64,000 nt of DNA, from positions 77,110 through 141,109 of the forward strand of contig JAWKTX010000014.1 of the NCBI GenBank assembly GCA_041398825.1, given 5' to 3'. Below, in pieces: positions 1,633 through 45,520 of the stretch. This DNA is from Planctomycetaceae bacterium (GTDB lineage Bacteria; Planctomycetota; Planctomycetia; Planctomycetales; Planctomycetaceae). The stretch's first letter is position 1. Every line of letters starts with the position of its first letter. The notes under the pieces are model-generated. The model worked only from the letters and a program-made list of their open reading frames with translations, made no database searches and was not told where the DNA came from. Both the position numbers and the translations under genes were made by a program.

Positions 1633-3096
1633 ATGAGGTTTGTAATGAGTTCAGATGCGGAAGGTGTGCTGACAGAGACTGAAGAGTCGGCCAACCGAAT
1701 GGATTTGAAGGTAGAGATTCGCAACGTCGGTCCATGTAAGAAGCATGTCTCCGTAACCGTTCAGGAAGCGGATATCAATACAATTCGAGAGGATTGTGTT
1801 GGTGAGCTTTCCGACCGTGCACAGGTTCCGGGCTTTCGAACCGGGCGCGTGCCCCGTCAGCTGCTGGTCAAGAAGTTCAAGGACGAAATCTCCGCTCAAA
1901 TCAAGCAGAAGGTTCTGCTGGCCAGCCTGGAGCAGATGTCCGAGGAACATAATCTCGACCCGATCAGTGAACCGAACATTGATGTTGAGAGCTTGGAGAT
2001 CCCGGACGCCGGAGATTTCAGCTATGAATTCGAAGTCGAAGTTCGGCCTGAATTTGACCTTCCGGATTACGCCTCATTTACAATCCGCCGCCCATCCGGT
2101 GATGTTACGGATGAAGAGCTGGCCACCTATCGCGAGCAGTTCCTCAGCTCATACGCCAAGGCAGAAGTTGTAGAGGAGCCTGTTGTTGCTGGTGATGTCA
2201 TTGTTTGTTCCATGACTTTCGAGCACGGCGGGAATCTACTGCGTGAAGTCAAGGGCACCAGTGTTGAAGTCCTGCCGTCTGTCAACTTTCAGGACGCAGC
2301 GCTGGACGGCTTTGACAAGCTGATGGAAGGTGCGAAAGCTGGCGACACTCGAAATGCCACCGTCACCATCTCATTGCAATCGCCTGTTGTGGAAATGCGC
2401 GGCGAGCAGGTGGATCTGAAAATCGAGGTTGAAGAAGTTCGTCGCCGTCAGCCTGTTGTGATCGATCGCGAGTTTCTTGAAAACCTGAGCATCGAGTCTG
2501 AAGAGGATCTGGTTGCTGAACTCAGGTCATCACTCCAGCGTCAGGTGGAGTTTCAGCAGCGACAAACGACGCGTGAACAGGTGCTTGAGAAGATTGTTGA
2601 CGCGGCTGATTGGGATCTTCCGGAAAGCCTGGTCCGCCAGCAGACCGAAAACGCTCTGCGACGTGAGCTGCTCGAAATGGCCCAGGCTGGTTTCACGCGC
2701 GAGCACATTCTTGCTCGGGAAAATGAGCTTCGCCGCAACGCACTGGACACCACACGTCAGGCACTGAAAGAGCATTTCGTTCTGGACCGCATTGCTACCC
2801 AGGAAAACATCGAATGCGAGCCCGGCGATATCGATCGCGAGCTATTGATGATGTCTTTCCAGAGCGGTGAGCCTGTTCGACGAATTCGCGCTCGGCTGGC
2901 GAAAAACGGCATGATCGAGAATCTCGAAGCACAGCTTCGTGAAAGAAAAGCGGTTGACTTCATTCTCAGCAAAGCGACATTTGAAGACGTTGAGCGTGAA
3001 CCCGTTGTTCAGAATAATGCGGCGGGTCTCCGGTTCGCGATCTGCGGCCAGATGAACCCCAGTTTGATTGATGACACCGACGAGACAGAAGAATAG
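1633..3096 (+). CDS. tig: trigger factor (ribosome-associated chaperone / PPIase)
   Basis: The 487-aa ORF carries the N-terminal ribosome-binding signature VPGFRTGRVPRQLLVKKF and has the overall tig length. It sits upstream of clpP in the conserved tig-clpP order. A shorter start at M23 (nt 1699, MDLKVEIRNVG) is possible. Confidence 0.9.
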   Translation: MRFVMSSDAEGVLTETEESANRMDLKVEIRNVGPCKKHVSVTVQEADINTIREDCVGELSDRAQVPGFRTGRVPRQLLVKKFKDEISAQIKQKVLLASLEQMSEEHNLDPISEPNIDVESLEIPDAGDFSYEFEVEVRPEFDLPDYASFTIRRPSGDVTDEELATYREQFLSSYAKAEVVEEPVVAGDVIVCSMTFEHGGNLLREVKGTSVEVLPSVNFQDAALDGFDKLMEGAKAGDTRNATVTISLQSPVVEMRGEQVDLKIEVEEVRRRQPVVIDREFLENLSIESEEDLVAELRSSLQRQVEFQQRQTTREQVLEKIVDAADWDLPESLVRQQTENALRRELLEMAQAGFTREHILARENELRRNALDTTRQALKEHFVLDRIATQENIECEPGDIDRELLMMSFQSGEPVRRIRARLAKNGMIENLEAQLRERKAVDFILSKATFEDVEREPVVQNNAAGLRFAICGQMNPSLIDDTDETEE

Positions 3097-3119
3097 CTGG
3101 CTCGCAAGATGGATGAATG

Positions 3120-3170
3120 AGAACAGGCCGTGCCGGACATCCGTTTCGACACCGCCTGTTCTTTGTGTTT
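3120..3170 (+). terminator. possible terminator/attenuator hairpin between tig and clpP
   Basis: A 9-bp stem (agaacaggc at 3120-3128 pairing with gcctgttct at 3154-3162) encloses a 25-nt loop and is followed by the T-rich ttgtgtttct. The large loop makes it a weak candidate. Confidence 0.35.
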
Positions 3171-3216
3171 CTGATGGAATAGAACTTTGCCCTGCAAGAC
3201 CTAAGAGGAAAAGCGA

Positions 3217-3828
3217 ATGAAGGATCCTCGCACTGATTATATGCCTCTGGCAGCACGTGAGTATTCAGCTCAGCGACAGATGACTGTCGGTGATTTGTTG
3301 CTGGACAACCGGATTATCTTCCTGGATGGTCCAATTCACGACGGCAGCGCGAATCTGATCGTCATGAAGATGCTCTATCTTCAGTCAGAGAATCGCCACC
3401 AGGACATCCATCTGTACATCAACTCACCGGGTGGATCCGTTACGGCGACGCTGGCCATCTACGACATCATGCAGTTCATTGAATGCGATGTCGCGACCTA
3501 CTGCGTTGGCCTCGCCGCAAGCGGTGGTGCGATCCTTGTCGCAGGCGGAACCGCGGGCAAACGATTCGCGCTCAAGCACGCCAAGATGATGATTCACCAG
3601 CCGTATGGTCAAGTCGGTGGACAGGTCTCTGATATTGAAATTCAGGCCAAGGATATTATCGCAACGCGTGAATTGCTCAATGAAATGCTGGCCAGTCACA
3701 CAGGCCAGCCGGTTGAGCGAATTGCAAAGGACACACAACGTGACCATTACCTGACTTCTCTGGAGGCTAAGAACTATGGCCTCGTCGATGAAGTCCTGGA
3801 GCGCCCGGCTAAAGAAAAGAAGAAGTAG
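3217..3828 (+). CDS. clpP: ATP-dependent Clp protease proteolytic subunit, paralog 1
   Basis: The 203-aa ORF contains [10 protein letters not shown]. The Ser-His-Asp triad context is intact: GLAASGG, MMIHQP and DTQRDHYL. Confidence 0.92.
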
Positions 3829-3911
3829 TTTGTCTGGATCGATGCCTGTGGCTCAGATCCGAAACGAATGGATGCCCGACTTCGCTCTCTTTCTTCTTAT
3901 GGAATCAAACG

Positions 3912-4499
3912 ATGACAGTTCTTGTCCCTTATGTTGTTGAAAAAAATGGCCGCGATGAACGGGCCATGGATATCTACAGCCGGCTGCTGAAGGATCGCAT
4001 CGTTATCCTTGGTAGTGGTGTCAATGACGATGTGGCTAACAGCATAGTGGCCCAATTGCTGTTCCTGCAGTTCGATGACCCGAAAGCTGATATCCATTTC
4101 TACATCAATTCACCGGGTGGCTCGATTACCGCTGGTATGGCGATCTACGATACCATGCAGTACATCAGTTGCGATGTTGCCACATACTGCATTGGTCAGG
4201 CCGCATCGATGGGTGCTGTGCTGCTAACCGCGGGGGCGCCAGGCAAACGTCATTCGCTTCCCAACGCCCGGATCATGATTCATCAACCGCTCGCGGGCAT
4301 GGAAGGCACGGCCACAGAGCTGGAGATCCATGCGAAAGAAGTGCTGCGAATTAAGAGAAAGATGAACGAAATCCTTCTGAAGCACACCGGGCAGACTCTG
4401 GAGAAAATTGAAGAAGACACGGATCGGGATAACTTCATGTCAGCAGACGAAGCTCGTTCATACAATTTGATCGATAAGGTTCTGGATCGCCTCGAATAG
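3912..4499 (+). CDS. clpP: ATP-dependent Clp protease proteolytic subunit, paralog 2
   Basis: The 195-aa ORF is canonical ClpP, with [37 protein letters not shown] and DTDRDNFM. Confidence 0.95.
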
Positions 4500-6558: not shown

Positions 6559-9153
6559 TCAACCACCTGAATCGATGGCGGCAAAGCTTGTCGACGTTTT
6601 ATGGTCAGCGGCTGAATGCTTCAGTTTCCCGGAATGGAGCAGCCCAATGAGCAGCGACACAATTTTCTGATCTTTTGTGCGTTCATCGGTCGCGGGTCCT
6701 GCTTCAGGGGTACTTTCCGGATTTGCTCCATGCAGTTCGGGTGAAAGGTGTTCCCAGGGAGTAATTTGCCAGCGAGTCTTCCTGAGTTTGCTGTTTGTCT
6801 TGTCGTATCGCCAGCCGCTGATGAGGCGTTCGGCAGTCCAGCGATTGTGCTCCATGATGCGGATCTTTTCACTCGTACTTTCATCGAGCGGCGATAGTGA
6901 ACTGCCTTCGGCGATGTCCTCAGCAACTCCCTCAATTCGATAACCAAGTGCGGCCGCCTTTAACACGGAGTGGATGGCAGCCGATCGGTTGGACGCACGG
7001 TCTTCTTCGGTGATGGTGTTCCAGATGTCGCGAGCAGTCTTCTCGAGGGATTGCCAATCCAGGTGAGAAAATGCCGGTCCCGGATTTGTAGCGCTGCAGG
7101 CTGACTGCAGACTCGCAATGTGAGAGTCAAATCGGCTGTCTGAGCTCTGCATCCAAACCAAATGAATCAGTCTGGCCAGCCAATCGGTCCAGCCCTGTGT
7201 GACTTCCAGGTACGAAACACTGCCGTAGCACTGGCCAAAAGGAAACAGTTCGCATCCTTTACGCGACAGAGTCTGTTCTTTGCTGGTGCGTTGCTCCGTC
7301 AATAACTGAGACAGTTCGCGCTGTCTGGGAATCCAGACGAAAATCGGACAACGTTTTTCTATGGTTCGGAGTTTCGCATTCAGTCGCTCGGCCGTCGCAA
7401 AGTTACGACGATCATCCTCGAAGCAAACCAGAATGACTGGTTTCACTCCTCTTCGTTCAATTGCGGGGACCATCTCACCAAGGAAATTCTCGTCAGTGGC
7501 TTCCGTGTATTTCGCGTAATGGATGTTGCACACATATTCTATTCCCAGCGGAGCATCCTGGTCCGATAGTCGGACGCGTTCCAGGGGTCGATAGATGCGG
7601 GAGGACCAGTGATCTGCATCTTCATTGAAATTCCACTCGCGGATCGCATTCAGGTCGGGACCAAATCGAGGATTCTTTGCGGCGAATTCCTTCGCCTTCT
7701 TTTCGATATCGTCATCAACAACGGTCAGTCTCAGACGCTTGCCGTTCTCAAAATGAGCCAGTTCGCCCAGGTGCAGAGCCAGTGTCTGTCCGAATCGGCC
7801 AAAGCCGAGCATCACAAAATGAGCGACTTCATGCGATTCATTCGGGCGCATTTCATCGCCGAATAATGTTGCGTTCGCGATGTCTGCTAACAGTCGGCGG
7901 GAAGTTCGTTCCAGAGCATTAAAGACCTCGATGTCCATCAGTCGATTCGTGCCGAGTTCGATCGCGTCTGCGCGATTGCGCAATGCAATGGCAAGGTCGC
8001 GATCCATGATGTGAGCGAAGCATCTCAACGGCGCCAGCGTCGATCCATACCAGGTCGTTCTTCTGCCGAATGCGTTCAGGATATCACGAATTTCAACCGT
8101 ACTCTCGATATTGCATTCGTCCCTGCCTGTGACGAGAAATACCTCGGCGGCTCTGGCAACGGCCGATTCGACAAGGTTTTCTCTTTTTGTCGCATCACCG
8201 ACAATGCAAAGGATTCCGTGGTCGCGAGCCCACTTCAGGTTGGGGTTACCCTCGTCCGGTTCGATGACAACAATCAAACGGCGATCTTTCATGTCGATCA
8301 GATCGGCGACCAGTTGACGTCCAATTCGACCGAGCCCGCAGACGATAATATGCCCGGAAACGTTGAGAAGCTGCAACTTCTCCCAGGAGTCATGGAACAA
8401 TACCAGAATACCGCGAGACGCTACGGTGAGCGCCAGCATCATGGCAAATCCAGCTGCCCATTGCAGGCTTTGGTTCGTCAGTCGGCTCGGCTCGACGTTA
8501 AACGCAAAAATCTGAAACGTGTCATAGAGTCCTGCGACGATAGACTCCGCCTTGTACTGATTGTCGGCTGCGAATCCAAAACTGCCAAACGCCAGGACCA
8601 GCAGCCCCAGTGCAATCACGGCAAAGCCACTCCAGCGAATGCACCATGAACTCAGCATTCGATAATGGTAAGGGAACCGTCGGCGCAGAATGGCGATCCC
8701 CATCAACAGCAACAGCACTCCCACAAGGCCATAAAAGTAGAGACTGCTGAAGTAGCCTGAAGCAGTCAGGGGCCGCCCGGTGTTACAGACGGTCGCCTTT
8801 GCAGATTCCGGCATTTGTGATCCCGGCGACCCTCGATCTGGAGATACTTCGGCGGGGCCATCCGTCTTTAAATCACGAGTGTCAGATTTTGCATCCGAAT
8901 GAGTGGTGTCCGGGGGCGGCTGCTTCGTAATTGGCATGCCATCTTCGACCGAACCCTCAGGTTGCTTTGTACGACTCTGCGAAGGTGGTTCGAAGCCGGA
9001 GGCGACAATAACGAACGCCACCACGAAGAGGATCAGTACGCCAATCAGGGCCGACGAGCCGTCTGGGACATTGGCAACAGTCCCGGTGGATTGACGGCCA
9101 TTCGACTGTGAAACGCCACTCTTATCGTTCTCCGGCATGTCCCTTTTCCGCAT
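6559..9153 (-). CDS. polytopic membrane protein with two TrkA-N/RCK-type NAD-binding Rossmann domains and C-terminal RyR-like repeats
   Basis: The 864-aa ORF has about 4-5 N-terminal TM helices, for example LIGVLILFVVAFVIVASGF and WSGFAVIALGLLVLAFGSFGF. The TrkA-N pattern is IIVCGLGRIGRQLVADL...IVGDATKRENLVESAV...EVFLVTGRDECNIES. A second GxGxxG fold begins at FVMLGFGRFGQTLALHL. The C-terminus (KIRIMEHNRWTAERLISGWRYD...ITPWEHLSPE) resembles the RyR domain (Pfam PF02026) consensus. No TVGYG-type K+ selectivity filter is visible. The RyR assignment is from memory of the consensus and needs an HMM check. Confidence 0.6.
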   Translation of the reverse strand: MRKRDMPENDKSGVSQSNGRQSTGTVANVPDGSSALIGVLILFVVAFVIVASGFEPPSQSRTKQPEGSVEDGMPITKQPPPDTTHSDAKSDTRDLKTDGPAEVSPDRGSPGSQMPESAKATVCNTGRPLTASGYFSSLYFYGLVGVLLLLMGIAILRRRFPYHYRMLSSWCIRWSGFAVIALGLLVLAFGSFGFAADNQYKAESIVAGLYDTFQIFAFNVEPSRLTNQSLQWAAGFAMMLALTVASRGILVLFHDSWEKLQLLNVSGHIIVCGLGRIGRQLVADLIDMKDRRLIVVIEPDEGNPNLKWARDHGILCIVGDATKRENLVESAVARAAEVFLVTGRDECNIESTVEIRDILNAFGRRTTWYGSTLAPLRCFAHIMDRDLAIALRNRADAIELGTNRLMDIEVFNALERTSRRLLADIANATLFGDEMRPNESHEVAHFVMLGFGRFGQTLALHLGELAHFENGKRLRLTVVDDDIEKKAKEFAAKNPRFGPDLNAIREWNFNEDADHWSSRIYRPLERVRLSDQDAPLGIEYVCNIHYAKYTEATDENFLGEMVPAIERRGVKPVILVCFEDDRRNFATAERLNAKLRTIEKRCPIFVWIPRQRELSQLLTEQRTSKEQTLSRKGCELFPFGQCYGSVSYLEVTQGWTDWLARLIHLVWMQSSDSRFDSHIASLQSACSATNPGPAFSHLDWQSLEKTARDIWNTITEEDRASNRSAAIHSVLKAAALGYRIEGVAEDIAEGSSLSPLDESTSEKIRIMEHNRWTAERLISGWRYDKTNSKLRKTRWQITPWEHLSPELHGANPESTPEAGPATDERTKDQKIVSLLIGLLHSGKLKHSAADHKTSTSFAAIDSGG

Positions 9154-9655
9154 GACATGGTGAAGTCATCCACCCATCGAAAGCCAATCCAAAACGCTTC
9201 CATATCAACTCGTGGGGGCCATCCGTTCCTTGCGTCACTGAACTCAAGTGAGTCTATTCCGCGCGGATGACTGCCACAAGGGACCCCAGGGAGTTCCAGT
9301 ATCCCCTCTATCAACTCCCGGACACGCAGTGCCAGCGCCACCTGACCTTGCCGTAATCGATTTTCAGGAATCTGTTTGAGATTTGAATACGGGGCTGACA
9401 ACGATGGTGGGTCCGGGAATCAGAAGGTTCAAAGTCCGGCGGAAATTTGCTGTCTGGATGGCTGTGGCAAAGAACCCGGGTCGTGGGTTTCAAACCTGAG
9501 AACAATGGATCAGTATGTGCTCTTCGTGGGGGGAGCGTTGGAGCCAGTGGAATTTGGCACACAGTGCTGGACAAAGCCTGGTTTGTTTCGTTTGATATCA
9601 CGTCATTATTTCTCTCGTGGATCCAGCAGGACGTGAAGATCAAACAGGTCCGGTC

Positions 9656-12600
9656 ATGAAACTGTTTTTCAATTACCGACGCGATGACACAGACGATTTG
9701 GCTGGACGTCTGCATGATCGATTGTCGGTAGAATTCGGCGCGGAGAATATTTTTAAGGACGTCGATTCCATCCGACCGGGCCAAAACTGGCGAGTCGCAC
9801 TGGAGCGGTCGATTGCTTCGTCGGATATCGTTTTGGCGATCATCGGAAAGCAATGGCTGACAATTACGGATGAGTTGGGGCAGCGACGGATCGATGCGGA
9901 AGAGGATTTTGTACGTTTTGAGCTCGAGGCGGCTCGCAGAGCTGGCAAGATCATTTTGCCAGTTGTTGTCAAAGGGGCCAGCATCCCCAATCCGTCGCTG
10001 CTGCCTGAGTCCATCCGGTGGCTTTGTGATTTTCAGCAGTCTGAACTGCGAGCAGATCCATTCTTCAAGGACGATGTTGCCCGACTCCTGGCCGAGCTCG
10101 TGCGAATTCGGGACCGGCTCAAAGATCAGCAGGCTAAAGTCAGTGCTATGCCTGCCGGAAACAGAAATGTCAGCCACGAAGCCGGAGGGATTCTGCGATG
10201 CAGCAGCTGCCATGCCCAGTGTGATCGTTCCAGTCAATACTGTGACGTCTGCGGGGCCGGGTTATGGACGACATGCCCATCGTGCGAATTGCCAGTACCA
10301 CAGAATCAGGTGTTTTGCAGCGGCTGTGGCAGCAATCTTCCAAAGCTGCGAGAGTTGATTGAGTTTACTGAAAAGACCGAAAAGCGGTTTGCAAGAACTC
10401 TGGCGATCGCAGATCCCGGGGAGCGTATGCATTCGATGGCAACCCTGGCTCGTGAGATTGAAGCCGCCATCCGCATTTATCCAAAGCATCAGCCTCTGGC
10501 ACATCTGCATTTTCAGGCGACGGAAGTTCATCGCAGGTCCGCGCGTGACCTGGCGGACGCTGTTTACGAATCCGGAAAGCTGGATCTTGCCCGAGAACAG
10601 TATACCCTGCTCAAGCAAATTGACCCTCTCAGCGAACATGCCAACGTGCAACTCGCGGCAATCGATGCTCGCTTCAAAGCGGACGCGAAAGCCTATCGAG
10701 AGCGGATTGCAAAGGGTGATTTCAAAAGGGCCATCGAAATCATCCTCAAGCTGGTCGATGCTTTCCCGGAGGACAGGCAGCTACGGGAGGACTTGCAGCA
10801 GTGTCAGGCGATACAGGACCGAATTGTTCGACTGATTCCTGAAGGTATCAGAGATCTGAAACGGCGGAAACAGTTTCTGGCGCTGGAGCAGGAGCTGCTG
10901 TGGCTCCGTCAACAAAAGATTCCTGTCAGGAAGCTTGACGAATGGCTTCAGGAAACGAAATCCATCGTTCGGCAGGCAAACCATGAATTCCTGCAGGCAC
11001 AAAGTGAATTGCGAGAGGGCCGCTTTCGACAGACCAGAAAACTTGCAAATGTCGTACTGAATCTTACTGCAGACCACGCAGGTGCCCGGGAACTGCTGGC
11101 TGCAACCAGTGGTACGGAATTAATGATTGCGAAGCTCAACGGATTGCTGCGAAAACAGCAGTACTGTGCGGCTAATCAACTGGTAAAAAAGCTGGCGGAA
11201 GACAACATCTCGGATCCCAGAGTGATACGACTGGCGGCAGCAACAAATGTCGAAATCACGACACTGGATTCGTCGATTCGACTGATACTGATGTTGTTTA
11301 TCGTCGCGTTTGTCCCGGGATATATCATCGGAAACAAAGTCTTTGAACAGCTGCAACTCAGCCCTTCAGCCACTGGTAGTCTTGTACAAACTCTCATCTG
11401 GTTGGCGAGTATTTCTGCGATCCCGGTATTTCTTGCCACTGTGTTGACGTTTGCCTTACCCAATGGCGCAGAAAGAATCTCTCGTTTTGTCTTTGACTGG
11501 CTGCCATTCGGTCGTCTGACAAGAATGAAGAAACCTGCAGGCGAGCAAAATTCCGAATCTGACGAAGAGGAAGAACTGAGCAACACCGCAGAACTGGATT
11601 CACCGGCAATTGAGACGCCCATTCCCGAACATTCCGTTCCCGGACATGATGTCGCCACCGTATCGGATAGTTCTCTGCAGACTTCGCCAGCGGAAGTGCA
11701 GGTCAAAGATGCGGGATCGGTGAACACAACTCGTCTCTCAGGAGACGATCCCCCTGACCCATTGCTGACGGTGGGGGCGGATCGTTCTGCCGGTCTGCTG
11801 GAAATGCTGTCCGTTGGTGTTCTTTTGTATTGCGTGTCCGTCGCGTGCGGAAACAACTTGTGGAACTGGTTACTTGGCCTGCGTTTTGATGCCTCGGTCG
11901 AAACGGATGCCAGGACGGTTGAAATACTCCGTCCGTTTTCAAGCGTCTTTCCATTGCTCGGGGCAGCAGTGATCGCGGTTTTCATCGAATCGGCATCCCG
12001 ATGGCGTCGTATCCTGACCGCTGGTGGAATCGGAATTCTCATCCAACTGCTGACCGCCATCCTTTTTCCGACAGCGGCGAAGTCCATCCAGGCAATCGTT
12101 CTTGGATTGATTCTTCTGTTGGTCATTTCCGAAGTGCGACGCGTATCCGTTGGCCGTGTCCTGCTCGTTCAGTTGGGCGCATTGACTGGAGCAACTTTGG
12201 TGTTTTCGGCAGCAATCCTGCCTCTGTTGCTTGCAGCAATTCTGCTGGGCTTTGAAAGCCGGTCGATTCCAGCGGCGTCTTTTTTGCAGGTGTGCCTGAC
12301 ATCGTTATTAATGTGCCAGATCTACGTTTCTGGTTCTTCTGCTGGTTCACTGCAGATTTCACGACTAGCGGCTGACTATCCGGCAGTTCGCGGCACCATG
12401 TCGATTGGTGCGGGCTGGATCGCTGCGGCAATCATTACGATTTCGGTTAGCTGGCTCACGTCTATTGTCCGTGAAGAATGGCACGGCGTTGCAAAGTGGG
12501 TACTTCTTATCTTCATGCTGCAGATGATACCTTTCGGTTTATCAGGCAGACTCGGACTGCGTTCTCAGCGGCTTTGGTTACTGGTGAGCGTGGTCTGGAC

Positions 12601-12802
12601 CACAACAGTTGCGGCCTTGTGGTGGCTACTGCCGACATCAGCTCTGCTTATGTTCCCCGTCACATTTGCATTCAGTGCGATCAGCCTGCTTCGGCTGGAA
12701 ACCTGCAACGTATTTACTCACTGGAACACTATCTGGCAGCAAATAAGGGTCAGACACTCAAGGCGTATGTTCGTCATCCGGCAAGTTCTTCGCCGCAACT
12801 GA
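9656..12802 (+). CDS. TIR-domain protein fused to a double zinc ribbon, helical repeats and a polytopic membrane domain
   Basis: The N-terminus reads MKLFFNYRRDDTDDLAGRLHDRL...IFKDVDSIRPGQNW...SSDIVLAIIGKQWL...EDFVRFELEAARRAGKIILPVVV, the bacterial TIR_2 pattern. It is followed by CSSC..CDVC..CPSC..CSGC (four CxxC pairs), ~330 aa of helical/TPR-like sequence, 2 TM helices, an acidic linker (SESDEEEELS) and ~8-10 more TM helices. The track ORF starts at GTG 9617. The ATG at 9656 sits directly in front of the TIR core, so it is preferred. Confidence 0.8.
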   Translation: MKLFFNYRRDDTDDLAGRLHDRLSVEFGAENIFKDVDSIRPGQNWRVALERSIASSDIVLAIIGKQWLTITDELGQRRIDAEEDFVRFELEAARRAGKIILPVVVKGASIPNPSLLPESIRWLCDFQQSELRADPFFKDDVARLLAELVRIRDRLKDQQAKVSAMPAGNRNVSHEAGGILRCSSCHAQCDRSSQYCDVCGAGLWTTCPSCELPVPQNQVFCSGCGSNLPKLRELIEFTEKTEKRFARTLAIADPGERMHSMATLAREIEAAIRIYPKHQPLAHLHFQATEVHRRSARDLADAVYESGKLDLAREQYTLLKQIDPLSEHANVQLAAIDARFKADAKAYRERIAKGDFKRAIEIILKLVDAFPEDRQLREDLQQCQAIQDRIVRLIPEGIRDLKRRKQFLALEQELLWLRQQKIPVRKLDEWLQETKSIVRQANHEFLQAQSELREGRFRQTRKLANVVLNLTADHAGARELLAATSGTELMIAKLNGLLRKQQYCAANQLVKKLAEDNISDPRVIRLAAATNVEITTLDSSIRLILMLFIVAFVPGYIIGNKVFEQLQLSPSATGSLVQTLIWLASISAIPVFLATVLTFALPNGAERISRFVFDWLPFGRLTRMKKPAGEQNSESDEEEELSNTAELDSPAIETPIPEHSVPGHDVATVSDSSLQTSPAEVQVKDAGSVNTTRLSGDDPPDPLLTVGADRSAGLLEMLSVGVLLYCVSVACGNNLWNWLLGLRFDASVETDARTVEILRPFSSVFPLLGAAVIAVFIESASRWRRILTAGGIGILIQLLTAILFPTAAKSIQAIVLGLILLLVISEVRRVSVGRVLLVQLGALTGATLVFSAAILPLLLAAILLGFESRSIPAASFLQVCLTSLLMCQIYVSGSSAGSLQISRLAADYPAVRGTMSIGAGWIAAAIITISVSWLTSIVREEWHGVAKWVLLIFMLQMIPFGLSGRLGLRSQRLWLLVSVVWTTTVAALWWLLPTSALLMFPVTFAFSAISLLRLETCNVFTHWNTIWQQIRVRHSRRMFVIRQVLRRN

Positions 12803-15216: not shown

Positions 15217-17565
15217 CTAATTCGTCTTGTCTGCTGTCTGGCTGTATCCGCTTCGAATGAGACGGCGAGTGACGAAGAGTTCGAGCAGCAGAAAGCAGGG
15301 AAACAGGAAAATCAGAATCGCCCACAGTTCTGTGCGCGATTCGTCTCCGTACATCGACTTCGCCAGTTCAAGCACATTATCCACAAAGCGAACACGGTCG
15401 TTGACCCGCAGTCGTCCTCGATCATCCGCAGTGAGTTCCGTAAAGTCGTCTTCAGCGTGATCGTAGTTGACCACGAATCGATCCAGTCGGTCATCGGACA
15501 AGACTTCGGCACCAGTGGCATCTGGCGATGACCGAACGAAATCGTAGACTCCCGGCAGCCATGTTCGGGACAGAAGAAAAGTCGATGGATCGCCGACTTC
15601 GTTTCCTTTGGGAGCCTCAGCGGCGTGAAACTCCCTGGACGGATCGACAAAGCCAGCCAGCGACAGATCAACGGAAATGTTGTCCGTCTGTGGCGGCGCT
15701 GATGCCATCAGTGGTGCGCCGACCTCGACATTGTGGCGGATGCGCGAAGACGCGGACTGAAGGACAGCTTCATACAGGAACGGAACGAAATCGGCGGTGG
15801 TCGGGAGGTTGTTCCATTGACGAGTCAGTGACGAATTAAAAAGCAGCACATTTCCTTCTCCGTGACTGCATTGAAGCAACAGAGGGTCGCCCGTGGTCAG
15901 AGAGATGAGTACGTTAGGGCGTGGATTCACTTCGTCTGGATCCGTCAGGGTCGGACTCAGATCGATGCTGGTCTCGTCCGTGGCATCCGGCGGATCTGAG
16001 GAATTCGTGGCACTGAACAGTGGGTTCGGAATCGGTTCTGTGAGCAACGACAGCCACCATTTTTCGTAACTGGCAGTCAGAAATGAGCGAGCGGTGTCAG
16101 AGCGAAATCGGCTCAACCATCCCGTCTGCAGCGAATTCTGATCGACATGAACCCGTCGAGTATCATCCGGAGGAGCTTCGCGAAGACGATCAAGCTTTAC
16201 TCCGGCCAGTAAGCCGGTCGCCCCGAACAGTTCCTGAAAGTTGTCTGAGTTCGTCTGGGGTCCTGGCGAAATAAAGATACCGTTTCCTCTGCTGGCGTAC
16301 TCTGCCAGATAAGAGGCAATGCCTTCCGGTAGAGAGACCACATCAGCCAGAATCACCATCGCAGCCCGATCGATATCAGCTCGCGTGACGTCATGCTGAT
16401 CAACCGTTTTCGCTGAGATCCAGGGGGTTTCTTCGGACGCCCCGAGTGCGGTTTCCACGAAAAACGTCTCACGTTCGAAAGGATCCAGGGATGGACGACC
16501 ATTGACCAGCAGAACAGGTAATGCGGTGGTTACGACAATCGCGCAATGACTGACGTCATCTGCCTGAATTGCATCGTCTGCAGCGCTGGCGGCAACACTT
16601 AGCACCTGAGTCCCGACCTGGTTCAGGCGGACTTCGAATTCAACCGATGCCGCGCTTTGGCCCGGGATTCGAATCTTCTGCGTATGTTCGGCAAGTGGCT
16701 GGCCATTCAGCAGCAATCGAATGTCTGTATCCCGATCATCCGCTCCACTATTGTGGATCCGGGTATTGAGTCGCACCGGAAAACCGGGAACGGTCAAATC
16801 GCGGGGCAGTTCGATTTTCCCGATGGCGATGTTCTGTCGGACAGGAGCCAGATGCTGTGATACGTCGATGGACCAAAACCTGGGTTTGATGGTCGGGAAA
16901 GTCATGAGGTCTTCTATGCGAGCCCAGCTGGCATCATCTGCTGCATCCCAGCCCGCTCGCTGTCGGTCCGTGAGCAAGACAATCTCGCGAGCCGAGGCGC
17001 TGGACTTTGACAAAACGGCTATTGCCTGTTCCACGGAAGTCCTGACATCGATCGACCCTCCCGCATCGGGAATGGCATCAATTGCTTTTTTCACCAACTG
17101 GAGATCCTGCAGTGGAGATTCAACGACAAGCCTCGGTTGGTCGCGCGCGTCAATGACAGAAACACTGTCTCCTGGACCGAGCGTCTCCAGAAATTCGGCC
17201 GCACGTCGTTTTGCATTCTGGTGCAGTGTGTTTAATCCATCACCTCGCGTCATCGAATTGGAACCGTCAATGACGAGGACGATTGCGCGCGATCCCATGG
17301 ATCGGTAACCCGAAAAAAGGCCGCTTGGCAGCCAGGGCCGTGTAACTGCCATAACAAGCAGCGCAATCATGCTCATACGGATGAGCATCAGCAGCAGTTC
17401 TTCGAGTTTGAGCTTGCGGCGCGTCTTTCGGGCCGGGTTCAGAAACTGCATGGCTCCCCACTGGACAACATCAAACCGTCGGCGACTGATCAGATGGGCA
17501 ATGACGGCCAGGCTTACGCCAAGCAGACCAGTCAGCGCCAGGGGATTCATGAAGTACTGGAGCAT
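15217..17565 (-). CDS. BatA-type N-terminal double-TM protein with a VWA domain
   Basis: The 782-aa ORF has the N-terminus LALTGLLGVSLAVIAHLISRRR, followed by a second TM helix. The VWA MIDAS-like motif is AIVLVIDGSNSMT. A C-terminal TM anchor is also present. This is a common planctomycete architecture. Confidence 0.8.
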   Translation of the reverse strand: MLQYFMNPLALTGLLGVSLAVIAHLISRRRFDVVQWGAMQFLNPARKTRRKLKLEELLLMLIRMSMIALLVMAVTRPWLPSGLFSGYRSMGSRAIVLVIDGSNSMTRGDGLNTLHQNAKRRAAEFLETLGPGDSVSVIDARDQPRLVVESPLQDLQLVKKAIDAIPDAGGSIDVRTSVEQAIAVLSKSSASAREIVLLTDRQRAGWDAADDASWARIEDLMTFPTIKPRFWSIDVSQHLAPVRQNIAIGKIELPRDLTVPGFPVRLNTRIHNSGADDRDTDIRLLLNGQPLAEHTQKIRIPGQSAASVEFEVRLNQVGTQVLSVAASAADDAIQADDVSHCAIVVTTALPVLLVNGRPSLDPFERETFFVETALGASEETPWISAKTVDQHDVTRADIDRAAMVILADVVSLPEGIASYLAEYASRGNGIFISPGPQTNSDNFQELFGATGLLAGVKLDRLREAPPDDTRRVHVDQNSLQTGWLSRFRSDTARSFLTASYEKWWLSLLTEPIPNPLFSATNSSDPPDATDETSIDLSPTLTDPDEVNPRPNVLISLTTGDPLLLQCSHGEGNVLLFNSSLTRQWNNLPTTADFVPFLYEAVLQSASSRIRHNVEVGAPLMASAPPQTDNISVDLSLAGFVDPSREFHAAEAPKGNEVGDPSTFLLSRTWLPGVYDFVRSSPDATGAEVLSDDRLDRFVVNYDHAEDDFTELTADDRGRLRVNDRVRFVDNVLELAKSMYGDESRTELWAILIFLFPCFLLLELFVTRRLIRSGYSQTADKTN

Positions 17566-43987: not shown

Positions 43988-45520
43988 ATGAACGGAAGCG
44001 TTGATGTCATGGAATTCTATCCCGTAGCTTTCAGGCATTTTCTCATGACACCTGTTTCTCGCCGCAGCGTTCTGAAATCGGCCATTCAATCCATGACGAC
44101 CGCTGCATCTCTGCCTGCTCTTGCTGTTGCGGGTTCAGGGGTACCTCGAATGCTGTCATCATCGTCGGCCATATCGGCCGTGGTTACAGAAGACGGGATG
44201 GCGGGAGAACGTCCGATGCAGGATGCGGCTGTGTCGGTCATCAATCCACGTGCTCGAGTTCCCGTGTCTTTTATCATTGACGACTCGACGTGCCTGGTAA
44301 ATCTCGCTCATTACGCGATGCCTCAGTTTGCCGAAACGTGGCCTGATCGAAAAGACTATCAAAAGCCATGGTGGACATGGCCTCGTGAAATTCCCGACGC
44401 TTTTGTTCGTAAATTCGGAGAATGGTGCGCGGAGCGAGAGATTAAAGGCAAATACAGCATTGTGCCTCAGCCGGCCTGTGTGGGATGGGTGGATCGTGAA
44501 TTGCCCGGCTGGTCTCACAAGCAGCTCGAATCCAGCCTGGATCTTGTCCGGACGCTGATGCTGCCCAACTGGGATATTCATCCGGAAATGGCTACCCATA
44601 CCCGAGTGATTGACGTGAGGACAGGCCGACCGTTTCCGGATCGCGGCGAGAACTGGATGGAGAACTGGGGCTGGACCACGGGGAAGTCCGTGGAGCAGTT
44701 GACAGAGTACCTTGCCTATTCCCTGAATATTCTGAAAGAGGCGGGGCTGCCATGCGAAGGTGTAACAACGCCTGGTGGATTTGCTGGTCGTGTGGTTTCC
44801 GAGTTGTCGCAGGCAACATTACGTTCTGTTCGCGAAGTCTTTCGTGCAGAGATTCCGCACTATTTCAAGTTTCTCTACACGGGCGAACAGAGTGTTGTAC
44901 CTCGCGTTGAGTATGCAGCCGGGTTGAATTCGGAGAGACCGGAGTGTGTTGTTTCGGTCATCGGCTGCACGGGTGACTGGTTCGGAGGCTGGGATGGCGA
45001 CGAAGCGGGCGACCCCGACAGATTCATCACTGAGGACTTGCAGACCGGCCGTATGGTGGAAGTCATCGATCGTGGCGAACCGGCGATCATGGTCTGCCAT
45101 TGGCCCGGCATTTATTTCAACGGAACGGAGCACGGATTCAACGTGTTCAGGACCGTGGTCGAACGGATGCATGCTCGATACGACCACCTGCTTTGGATGA
45201 AGCTCAGCGAGATTTCACGCTACTGGGCAGCCAAAGAACTCACCGCGATTCACTTTCAGCAGGAAGAGAACATCACCGCCGGATCGACCCTTCAGTTTCG
45301 TGCTCCTTTTTCCTGCCCGGATTTTACCGTTCAGTGGAAGAGGGACGCGGCATCAACGGTTGGCCGACTGATAGTTCGGACGGACGATTCGAATGTCGAA
45401 CTTCAGCCTGTCAGTGGCCTCCTGAATCTGAGGGCTGGAACGTACCACCAGCATGGTGAAACAGTAACGGCCTGCTTCAACCTGTTCAGGGGGCCGTCAA
45501 CATTGGTCTGTCAGACATAG
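43988..45520 (+). CDS. hypothetical Tat-signal protein (possibly deacetylase/glycoside-hydrolase-like fold)
   Basis: The 510-aa ORF carries the twin-Arg signal TPVSRRSVLKSAI...ALAVAG. It lies 14 nt downstream of the DUF1501 gene. The fold suggestion is weak. An alternative start is M20 at 44045. Confidence 0.55.
   Translation: MNGSVDVMEFYPVAFRHFLMTPVSRRSVLKSAIQSMTTAASLPALAVAGSGVPRMLSSSSAISAVVTEDGMAGERPMQDAAVSVINPRARVPVSFIIDDSTCLVNLAHYAMPQFAETWPDRKDYQKPWWTWPREIPDAFVRKFGEWCAEREIKGKYSIVPQPACVGWVDRELPGWSHKQLESSLDLVRTLMLPNWDIHPEMATHTRVIDVRTGRPFPDRGENWMENWGWTTGKSVEQLTEYLAYSLNILKEAGLPCEGVTTPGGFAGRVVSELSQATLRSVREVFRAEIPHYFKFLYTGEQSVVPRVEYAAGLNSERPECVVSVIGCTGDWFGGWDGDEAGDPDRFITEDLQTGRMVEVIDRGEPAIMVCHWPGIYFNGTEHGFNVFRTVVERMHARYDHLLWMKLSEISRYWAAKELTAIHFQQEENITAGSTLQFRAPFSCPDFTVQWKRDAASTVGRLIVRTDDSNVELQPVSGLLNLRAGTYHQHGETVTACFNLFRGPSTLVCQT

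Follow-up and report, generated by a model that had tools for sequence, protein, structure and literature searches.

A membrane-tethered, SARM1-like TIR protein of a planctomycete and the linkage of its gene family to RyR-domain genes

Nucleotides derived from ADP-ribose (ADPR) and made by TIR domains are immune signals in bacteria, plants and animals. For Thoeris antiphage systems (types I-XI), a systematic survey lists about 29 predicted effector types, with types V-XI validated. Several of these effectors are membrane proteins, one is named an 'ion channel', and membrane-spanning effectors are common in types II, V, VI, VII and X (bioRxiv 10.64898/2025.12.03.692087). Other antiphage TIR proteins, found in Escherichia coli, are encoded by a single gene and combine a TIR domain with a transmembrane (TM) or a TPR region; their function needs the TIR active site (PMC11350192). 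The sensing of cyclic ADPR (cADPR)-type molecules by RyR domains is an old question in animal physiology that was raised again by a 2026 phage preprint (PMC13232231). In that work, the phage protein RyDEP and six of eight tested homologs bind TIR-made 2'/3'cADPR, and RyDEP cleaves it. For two characterised RyR-domain homologs the affinity is nanomolar. The preprint names H75, W78, H100 and D117 as ligand residues and covers RyR domains of viruses and animals only (PMC13232231). Here we describe a TIR gene at positions 9656-12802 of a 64,000-nucleotide stretch of DNA (the window) from a Planctomycetaceae bacterium (contig JAWKTX010000014.1, positions 77,110 to 141,109). It encodes a membrane protein of 1048 amino acids (aa) and adjoins a divergent gene for a protein with TM helices, a KTN domain and RyR repeats (TM-KTN-RyR protein).

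The TIR protein begins with a TIR_2 domain and a double zinc ribbon, followed by about 300 aa of helical, TPR-like sequence and a TM hairpin; an acidic linker, predicted to be disordered, then leads to a membrane bundle of 10 helices. From conserved residues in both proteins, from gene linkage and from analogy with described systems, we propose that this membrane-bound, SARM1-like TIR makes an ADPR-type nucleotide on activation, which would be received by the TM-KTN-RyR protein encoded next to it, and that the latter would act at the membrane. We regard this proposal as evenly poised between right and wrong. Because of the linkage to RyR genes, the likeliest role of the TIR protein shifts from a stand-alone depleter of NAD+ to a generator of an ADPR-type signal. 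The features of the gene are given below. TM segments were taken from Kyte-Doolittle hydropathy, and AlphaFold2 (AF2) was run on the family alignment, with confidence given as the predicted local distance difference test (pLDDT).

9656..12802, + strand: coding sequence of the 1048-aa TIR / double zinc ribbon / TPR-like / 12-TM protein (open reading frame (ORF), Pfam, homologs, AF2)
9656..10105, + strand: TIR domain, SARM1-like, aa 1-150 (Pfam TIR_2, phmmer against PDB, clade profile, Foldseek)
9920..9922, + strand: GAG codon of Glu89, aligned with the SARM1 catalytic E642 (codon read, alignment)
10193..10339, + strand: double zinc ribbon with four invariant CxxC pairs, aa 180-228 (Pfam, family alignment, profile match to DZANK1 at E 9e-4)
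10340..11215, + strand: all-helical region, predicted cytoplasmic, aa 229-520, TPR-like at about aa 295-393 (AF2 pLDDT 81-92, profile, Foldseek)
11216..11458, + strand: long helix that leads into a TM hairpin with TM1 at aa 541-559 and TM2 at aa 583-601 (hydropathy, AF2)
11501..11755, + strand: acidic Ser/Glu/Pro linker, predicted disordered, aa 616-700, hypervariable between family members (pLDDT, 6-33% identity)
11759..12694, + strand: ten-helix membrane bundle of orphan fold, aa 702-1013 (hydropathy, AF2)
12722..12796, + strand: basic C-terminal helix, aa 1023-1047, predicted cytoplasmic (hydropathy, AF2)

The longest ORF opens at GTG 9617, a start that the N-termini of the homologs do not support. 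ATG 9656, the start used in the initial annotation of this DNA, is the likely one because 21 full-length homologs begin with MKLF(F/I)NYRR at the same point. A comparison of identity to the window protein by region makes the TIR its most conserved part (52-87%), followed by the helical region (25-61%), the bundle (12-51%) and the linker (6-33%). The architecture had been judged to fall outside the known TIR types, and this judgement holds: no PADLOC or NCBIfam model matches the full protein, and both collections return weak TIR-only matches and nothing else.

The N-terminus, which had been recognised as a bacterial TIR_2 domain from its motifs, is scored as one by Pfam. TIR_2 (PF13676) covers aa 4-129 with an E value of 2e-10; its 41.6 bits clear the cut-off of 28, and TIR is also annotated in the homologs. 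The modelled domain has a TIR fold of the flavodoxin-like beta-alpha type (pLDDT 83-92). The residue proposed to occupy the catalytic position (Glu89, nucleotides 9920-9922) is indeed encoded by GAG, aligns with SARM1 E642 and is invariant in 21 family and 25 sister-clade sequences. A phmmer search of all PDB sequences with aa 1-175 returned only the human SARM1 TIR (E 5e-4). Its alignment places DFVRFE89 on DWVHKE642, NYRR on SYRR and DVDSIRPG on the BB-loop DVEKLEAG. Y7-R8-R9 match the SARM1 SYRR, and D35, D37 and G42 fall in the BB-loop region. A profile built from the TIRs of the family and its sister clade (profile A3) found only SARM1 and Caenorhabditis elegans TIR-1 in PDB at E <0.01, with a best E of 6e-10. 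Foldseek with the full-length model ranked the SARM1 TIR first (E 1e-5, TM-score 0.83, root-mean-square deviation 2.7 Å, probability 1.00) and gave lower TM-scores for other TIRs such as AbTir (0.65) and RPS4 (0.62). Glu at the catalytic position is kept in more than 70% of all TIRs, non-enzymatic ones included, and alone is no proof of activity (PMC7075850). Since this residue is so common in non-enzymatic TIRs, catalysis by the window TIR stays a prediction; it is strengthened by the constraint on the TIR, which exceeds that on every other part of the protein. On these alignments, the domain is SARM1-like and is predicted to cleave NAD+.

The candidate partner is encoded upstream on the opposite strand and has the following features.

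6559..9153, - strand: gene of the candidate partner, a protein of 864 aa (4 predicted TM helices, KTN/TrkA_N Rossmann domain, second Rossmann-like stretch with GxGxxG, tandem RyR repeat)
8080..8349, - strand: TrkA_N domain (KTN/RCK-type, NAD-binding fold), partner aa 269-358 (Pfam 63.2 bits, weak TrkA/Kef matches)
6598..7191, - strand: tandem RyR repeats (R12-type), partner about aa 655-852 (Pfam, PDB matches, RyDEP alignment)
9154..9655, no strand: divergent intergenic region of 502 bp between the TIR and partner genes (ORF map)

The window partner scores 21.8 bits against the Pfam RyR model (PF02026), below the cut-off of 27.4, and its ortholog in locus L027 scores 33.4 bits, above it. The C-terminus of the partner also matches PDB structures of the RyR1/2/3 repeats and a Bacteroides RyR-like protein. 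Ligand residues were compared in an alignment of RyDEP, a 98-aa RyR protein from locus L112, the Bacteroides RyR-like protein and the RyR repeats of three TM-KTN-RyR partners. RyDEP H75, W78 and D117 are invariant throughout this alignment, and the window protein has H769, W772 and the Asp of ERTKDQ at these positions. At the position of RyDEP H100, the small proteins also have His, while the fused ones have Arg or Asn (Arg in the window partner). The 502-bp intergenic region has no convincing sigma-70 site, and a promoter and terminator scan did no better than shuffled sequence.

Eleven loci of the TIR family come with flanking DNA, and in five of them a RyR-domain gene adjoins the family gene, in four different arrangements. 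The window has the TM-KTN-RyR gene in divergent orientation, about 500 bp from the TIR gene. L027 has it in the same direction, 41 bp downstream of the family gene, with a second RyR ORF present. In L030 (62-7576) and L025 (3666-8430) the order is TM-KTN-RyR, PGDYG (PF14083), a second TIR gene and then the family gene. The second TIR gene of these two loci lies on the opposite strand and encodes a SARM1-like TIR_2 protein of 440-455 aa. The TM-KTN-RyR orthologs of L027, L030 and L025 have 30-33% identity (E 1e-55 to 1e-111). L112 belongs to a distant subclade and carries a gene for a stand-alone RyR protein of 98 aa (4069-4365), placed 51 bp downstream of the family gene. This small protein matches RyDEP itself and keeps the H/W/H/D ligand residues. 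It also has matches in 204 phage records, including DyoEdafos gp78. No RyR ORF was found in 265 kb around the TIR genes of the sister clade.

The linkage was also approached from the partner side. A reciprocal metagenome scan with the partner alignment covered 80 loci out of at least 388 relatives. The RyR domain is part of the match in 48 loci; of these, 39 are flanked by at least 1.5 kb on one side, and 17 by at least 3 kb on each side. Most partner-side TIRs escape profile A3, so an iterated profile, checked for drift with Pfam, was used instead. It detects TIR ORFs in 28 of the 80 loci. A TIR ORF lies within 3 kb of the TM-KTN-RyR gene in 19 of the 39 loci, mostly at less than 1 kb, and in 8 of the 17 with full flanks. 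The density of TIR ORFs is 25 per 202 kb near the TM-KTN-RyR gene versus 7 per 244 kb farther out, and all ten partner-side TIR ORFs that were sampled are TIR_2 by Pfam. The C-termini of these TIR proteins vary and contain TPR, NACHT/STAND with TPR, SH3, an HsdR-like helicase or none of these. A shared putative effector combined with variable TIR sensors is the pattern of Thoeris. Co-directional and divergent pairs both occur, so the divergent layout of the window has precedents. The proteins encoded beside TM-KTN-RyR genes include unusual fusions (L076, 6183-9599; L034, 5161-8826), among them one of TIR with an HsdR-like type I restriction helicase and one of TIR with NACHT/STAND and TPR. In L039, four TIR ORFs surround one TM-KTN-RyR gene. 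A TIR-TPR protein of L048 is too weakly similar to the window protein to count as its soluble relative.

The middle of the TIR protein largely bears out its first description. The four CxxC pairs noted there (C182/185, C196/199, C207/210 and C221/224) are real, all eight Cys are invariant in the family, and profiles identify a double zinc ribbon. Pfam DZR (PF12773) scores 26.2 bits, slightly below its cut-off of 27.3, and Zn_Ribbon_1 scores 25.6 against 25. DZR is annotated in most homologs, and the AF2 pLDDT of the ribbons is 64-74. The stretch that follows had been described as about 330 aa of helical, TPR-like sequence. AF2 supports its helical nature, and a TPR character is supported for about aa 295-393 alone. 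A single-sequence TPR match in Pfam is marginal (E 0.1-0.2). A profile of aa 172-540 searched against PDB finds the double zinc ribbon of DZANK1 and, for the stretch of about aa 295-393, BamD and consensus TPR proteins. Foldseek lists TPR superhelices for the helical region with a probability of 0.99 and a low TM-score. By hydropathy, the TM hairpin is followed by a 110-aa acidic linker. The Ser/Glu-rich acidic linker of the initial annotation is therefore present, and AF2 predicts it to be disordered (pLDDT <40 at aa 620-699).

The C-terminal membrane bundle had been counted as 8-10 helices beyond a first pair. The pair stands, and the larger figure is now settled at 10, as hydropathy gives 2 + 10 TM segments and AF2 builds the same 10-helix bundle. 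The bundle has a pLDDT of 84-94 in the full-length model; modelled alone, it reaches a pLDDT of 88 and a predicted template modelling score of 0.86. Residues E716, G721, W783, R912, G913, W948, Q956 and P993 are conserved in the family. The bundle has no Pfam match. Its profile, searched against 1.84 billion cluster representatives, retrieved 30 proteins, and all except P0032 are family members or fragments of them. Foldseek gave no significant fold match in PDB (best E 0.04, TM-score at most 0.21) or in BFVD (best E 0.36), and the transporter, channel and toxin names in these lists were set aside as noise. An hhalign comparison of the two halves of the bundle showed no internal repeat. With a confident model and no detectable relatives in sequence or fold, the bundle is a candidate new membrane fold. 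In P0032 (903 aa), a different TIR and a Ser/Thr protein kinase domain precede the same 10-helix bundle. Since P0032 also carries it, the bundle appears to be a reusable, orphan module placed behind N-terminal cytoplasmic signalling domains. The TIR, the zinc ribbons, the TPR-like region, the linker and the C-tail are all predicted to face the cytoplasm, because the TM count is even, the N-terminal TIR would need NAD+ and the C-tail is Arg-rich. No extracytoplasmic domain is predicted by hydropathy or AF2, and the 12 TM segments are joined by only short external loops. With all soluble parts predicted to be cytoplasmic, any envelope sensing would have to reside in the membrane bundle itself.

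The family is small. A search of 5.8 billion proteins yielded 22 full-length relatives with 26-58% identity, one of them labelled Planctomycetaceae. Only three loci, all planctomycete, were found among 185,579 GTDB species representatives: the gene has frameshifts in one, is interrupted by an in-frame stop in another and ends at a contig edge in the third. The initial annotation had named three outcomes that would overturn its reading: an N-terminus that a profile search does not score as TIR, a residue other than Glu at the catalytic position together with a lack of NAD+ turnover, and a ubiquitous planctomycete core gene. None of them is seen: the N-terminus scores as TIR, the aligned residue is Glu, and the family is rare and not a core gene, with neighbours that vary. 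In L003 (8001-10400, a Planctomycetota metagenome-assembled genome (MAG)), a TIR ORF of 172 aa is separated by an in-frame stop from a 620-aa zinc-ribbon/helical ORF in the same frame. A split gene, read-through, a pseudogene and a sequencing error are all conceivable causes. In L002 (7983-11077), a long-read MAG, the family gene is spread over four overlapping frames, and the breaks are probably sequencing frameshifts and not decay. A conserved operon across the whole family was rejected, as neighbours differ between loci. Recent horizontal transfer is not supported either, as the gene and its surroundings have the same GC content.

The nearest TIRs outside the family have 41-47% identity and occur in Anaerolineae, cyanobacteria, Thiolinea and Acidimicrobiales. 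The proteins of this sister clade (L004-L024, L026) have an N-terminal TIR, mostly one TM helix, and then FGE-sulfatase, SBP_bac_5, Peripla_BP_6 or SH3_3. They combine the topology of Toll-like receptors with a SARM1-like TIR; the L026 protein is a TIR with 6 TM helices. TIR/FGS proteins of multicellular bacteria have been predicted to be components of conflict systems (PMC7159879; PMC10907252). A literature search on TIR with FGE-sulfatase gave no match. Around the locus, the window has genes typical of a planctomycete chromosome (tig, two clpP, MutS, DnaB, PSCyt, DUF1501). The trigger factor gene and the two clpP paralogs after it form a housekeeping cluster upstream (1633-4499). A BatA/VWA membrane protein of the aerotolerance type is encoded at 15217-17565 (- strand), and BatD/VWA genes also lie near the homolog P0010, which is probably a coincidence. 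Farther along, an ORF of 510 aa (43988-45520, + strand) directly follows DUF1501 among PSCyt/PSD1 genes and lacks a Pfam match at E <1e-5.

In the mechanism that we propose, the protein would sit in the cytoplasmic membrane with all of its soluble parts in the cytoplasm. A trigger would be sensed by the fast-evolving membrane bundle, by the helical region or by both. Activation would bring the N-terminal SARM1-like TIRs together, as in SARM1 and bacterial TIR effectors, and the assembled site with Glu89 would cleave or cyclise NAD+ to an ADPR-type nucleotide, for example cADPR or its 2'/3' isomer. The nucleotide would be bound by the tandem RyR repeat of the divergently encoded TM-KTN-RyR protein, which would then alter membrane or ion-flux properties as an effector of the abortive-infection or stress type. 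More broadly, bacteria may have an undescribed Thoeris-like system in which TIR proteins signal through a cADPR-type nucleotide to host TM-KTN-RyR proteins. Such a system would be a prokaryotic counterpart, possibly an antecedent, of the animal SARM1/cADPR/ryanodine-receptor axis. This extension is tentative, and we place it a little short of an even chance.

Several observations weigh against the proposed mechanism. The TIR-RyR linkage is missing from about half of the family loci. Six of the 11 loci with DNA have no RyR in the available flanks (L001/L028, L002, L003, L029 and L111), and no RyR gene is recorded for P0010, P0011 and P0018. Because of these six loci, the family may act alone or with a partner encoded elsewhere. 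From the partner side, the closest metagenomic homolog (L031) has no TIR within 9-10 kb. The catalytic Glu is necessary and not sufficient for activity (PMC7075850). The partner has no match among the PADLOC or NCBIfam defence models, and it keeps the H/D dyad of RyDEP, so it could degrade the nucleotide instead of sensing it. In the window and in the contigs of homologs, the gene lies outside defence islands, among housekeeping neighbours and with native GC. A rival reading is a membrane-anchored NADase that works alone: it would sense for itself and kill or arrest the cell by depleting NAD+, in the manner of SARM1 and single-gene TIR defence proteins, while RyR proteins, where present, buffer or recycle the cyclic by-products as an anti-autoimmunity sponge or a glycosidase. 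Most family loci are without a RyR neighbour and no other conserved partner is seen, the SARM1-like TIR has all the aligned catalytic features, and in E. coli phage protection by a single gene is known for TIR+TM and TIR+TPR proteins (PMC11350192). The H/D dyad kept in the RyR repeats is that of the RyDEP glycosidase, and the neighbour in L112 is small and RyDEP-like. The partner in the window, however, is a large membrane protein with KTN domains and resembles an effector and not a sponge. The pairing of about half of the partner family with sensor-variable TIR genes is likewise the signature of a shared effector. We consider a NADase acting alone unlikely.

The housekeeping context, the native GC and the lack of any mobile-element or defence-island signal would also suit a pathway outside immunity, in which the bundle reports the state of the membrane or envelope, the TIR makes a cADPR-type second messenger and the RyR/KTN protein adjusts ion homeostasis. 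KTN/RCK domains such as those of the partner are typical of regulators of K+ transport, the TIR has its closest relatives in receptor-like proteins whose SBP, PBP or FGE-sulfatase domains lie outside the cytoplasm, and P0032 couples the same bundle to a Ser/Thr kinase. A homeostatic role fits poorly with the very patchy distribution of the family and the hypervariability of its presumed sensor parts. In addition, some TIR partners of the RyR family are fused to NACHT/STAND or to a restriction helicase, as is typical of conflict systems, and we judge a non-immune pathway distinctly unlikely. The last alternative is a TIR that is not catalytic and serves for assembly or as a scaffold, with an adjacency to RyR genes that reflects synteny or coincidence. 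Glu at the catalytic position is common in non-enzymatic TIRs too (PMC7075850), and a single subclade (P0001-P0009) accounts for four of the five RyR-linked loci. Yet the adjacency persists over four gene arrangements, recurs in a distant subclade with a different RyR protein (L112) and is matched by an independent enrichment of TIRs from the partner side. The TIR is moreover the most constrained region of the protein, with the NAD-pocket motifs of SARM1 conserved. We regard a scaffold TIR beside RyR genes by chance as very improbable.

The TM-KTN-RyR family is widespread, and about half of its loci have a host TIR/RyR gene pair; such a pair would make the question of RyR sensing addressable with two bacterial proteins. 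If the proposed signalling from TIR to TM-KTN-RyR protein is true, it would add a new effector class to Thoeris-like signalling and a SARM1-like TIR that operates from the membrane. It would also give RyR repeats a native role in ligand sensing.

Compared with known systems, the window TIR shares with SARM1 and TIR-1 the catalytic Glu, Y-R-R, the BB-loop Asp and Gly and an aromatic residue four positions before the Glu, all of which align. The likeness is confined to the TIR domain. The protein has no ARM or SAM domain by Pfam and thus not the ARM-SAM-TIR architecture of the SARM1 family. Its TIR is N-terminal and membrane-tethered, the BB-loop K597 of SARM1 is replaced by Ser, and identity is about 20-30%. 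The topology of Toll-like receptors, with an external ligand domain, one TM helix and a cytoplasmic TIR, is found in the sister-clade proteins and not in the window protein. These TIR-TM-sensor proteins share with it the FGxxNIFKDVD and DFVRxExE motifs and an N-terminal cytoplasmic TIR followed by a membrane span. They differ in having one TM helix and a large extracytoplasmic ligand domain, where the window protein crosses the membrane 12 times and lacks an external domain. TIR effectors of CBASS, Pycsar and type III CRISPR carry a fused cyclic-nucleotide sensor. No STING, SAVED or cNMP-binding match was found in the 1048-aa protein with Pfam, PADLOC or NCBIfam, which sets it apart from the TIR-STING, TIR-SAVED and PycTIR layouts. 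The single-gene antiphage TIR+TM and TIR+TPR proteins of E. coli resemble it in joining a TIR with TM or TPR in one polypeptide (PMC11350192). They are much smaller, lie in defence islands and are known to be alike only in the TIR fold. The partner and the 98-aa protein of L112 share with phage RyDEP the PF02026 fold family and the equivalents of H75, W78 and D117. Unlike RyDEP, the window RyR is host-encoded, is fused to TM and KTN regions and presumably senses or regulates instead of countering defence.

The comparison with Thoeris is the closest. The window TIR protein is a 1048-aa polytopic membrane protein encoded outside a defence island, and its partner family is linked to TIR genes in only about half of the loci, both of which differ from Thoeris. 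The partner matches none of the described Thoeris effector families (ThsA, ThsC-ThsL) through PADLOC or NCBIfam. RyR, TrkA, PF02026 and PF02254 are absent from the text and supplementary tables of the Thoeris survey as far as these were accessible, Table S1 in part (10.64898/2025.12.03.692087). A literature search found no paper that combines Thoeris and TrkA. The TIRs listed in the survey for Thoeris type X, the type with the 'ion channel' effector, differ from the window TIR and are ThsB-like. As in Thoeris, the TIR gene of the window adjoins a gene for a domain, here RyR, of a type known to bind cADPR isomers (PMC13232231), and a constant partner family is combined with TIR partners whose sensor domains vary. 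At the risk that it is already listed under another label, this comparison suggests that the TIR/RyR pairing is an undescribed Thoeris-like variant.

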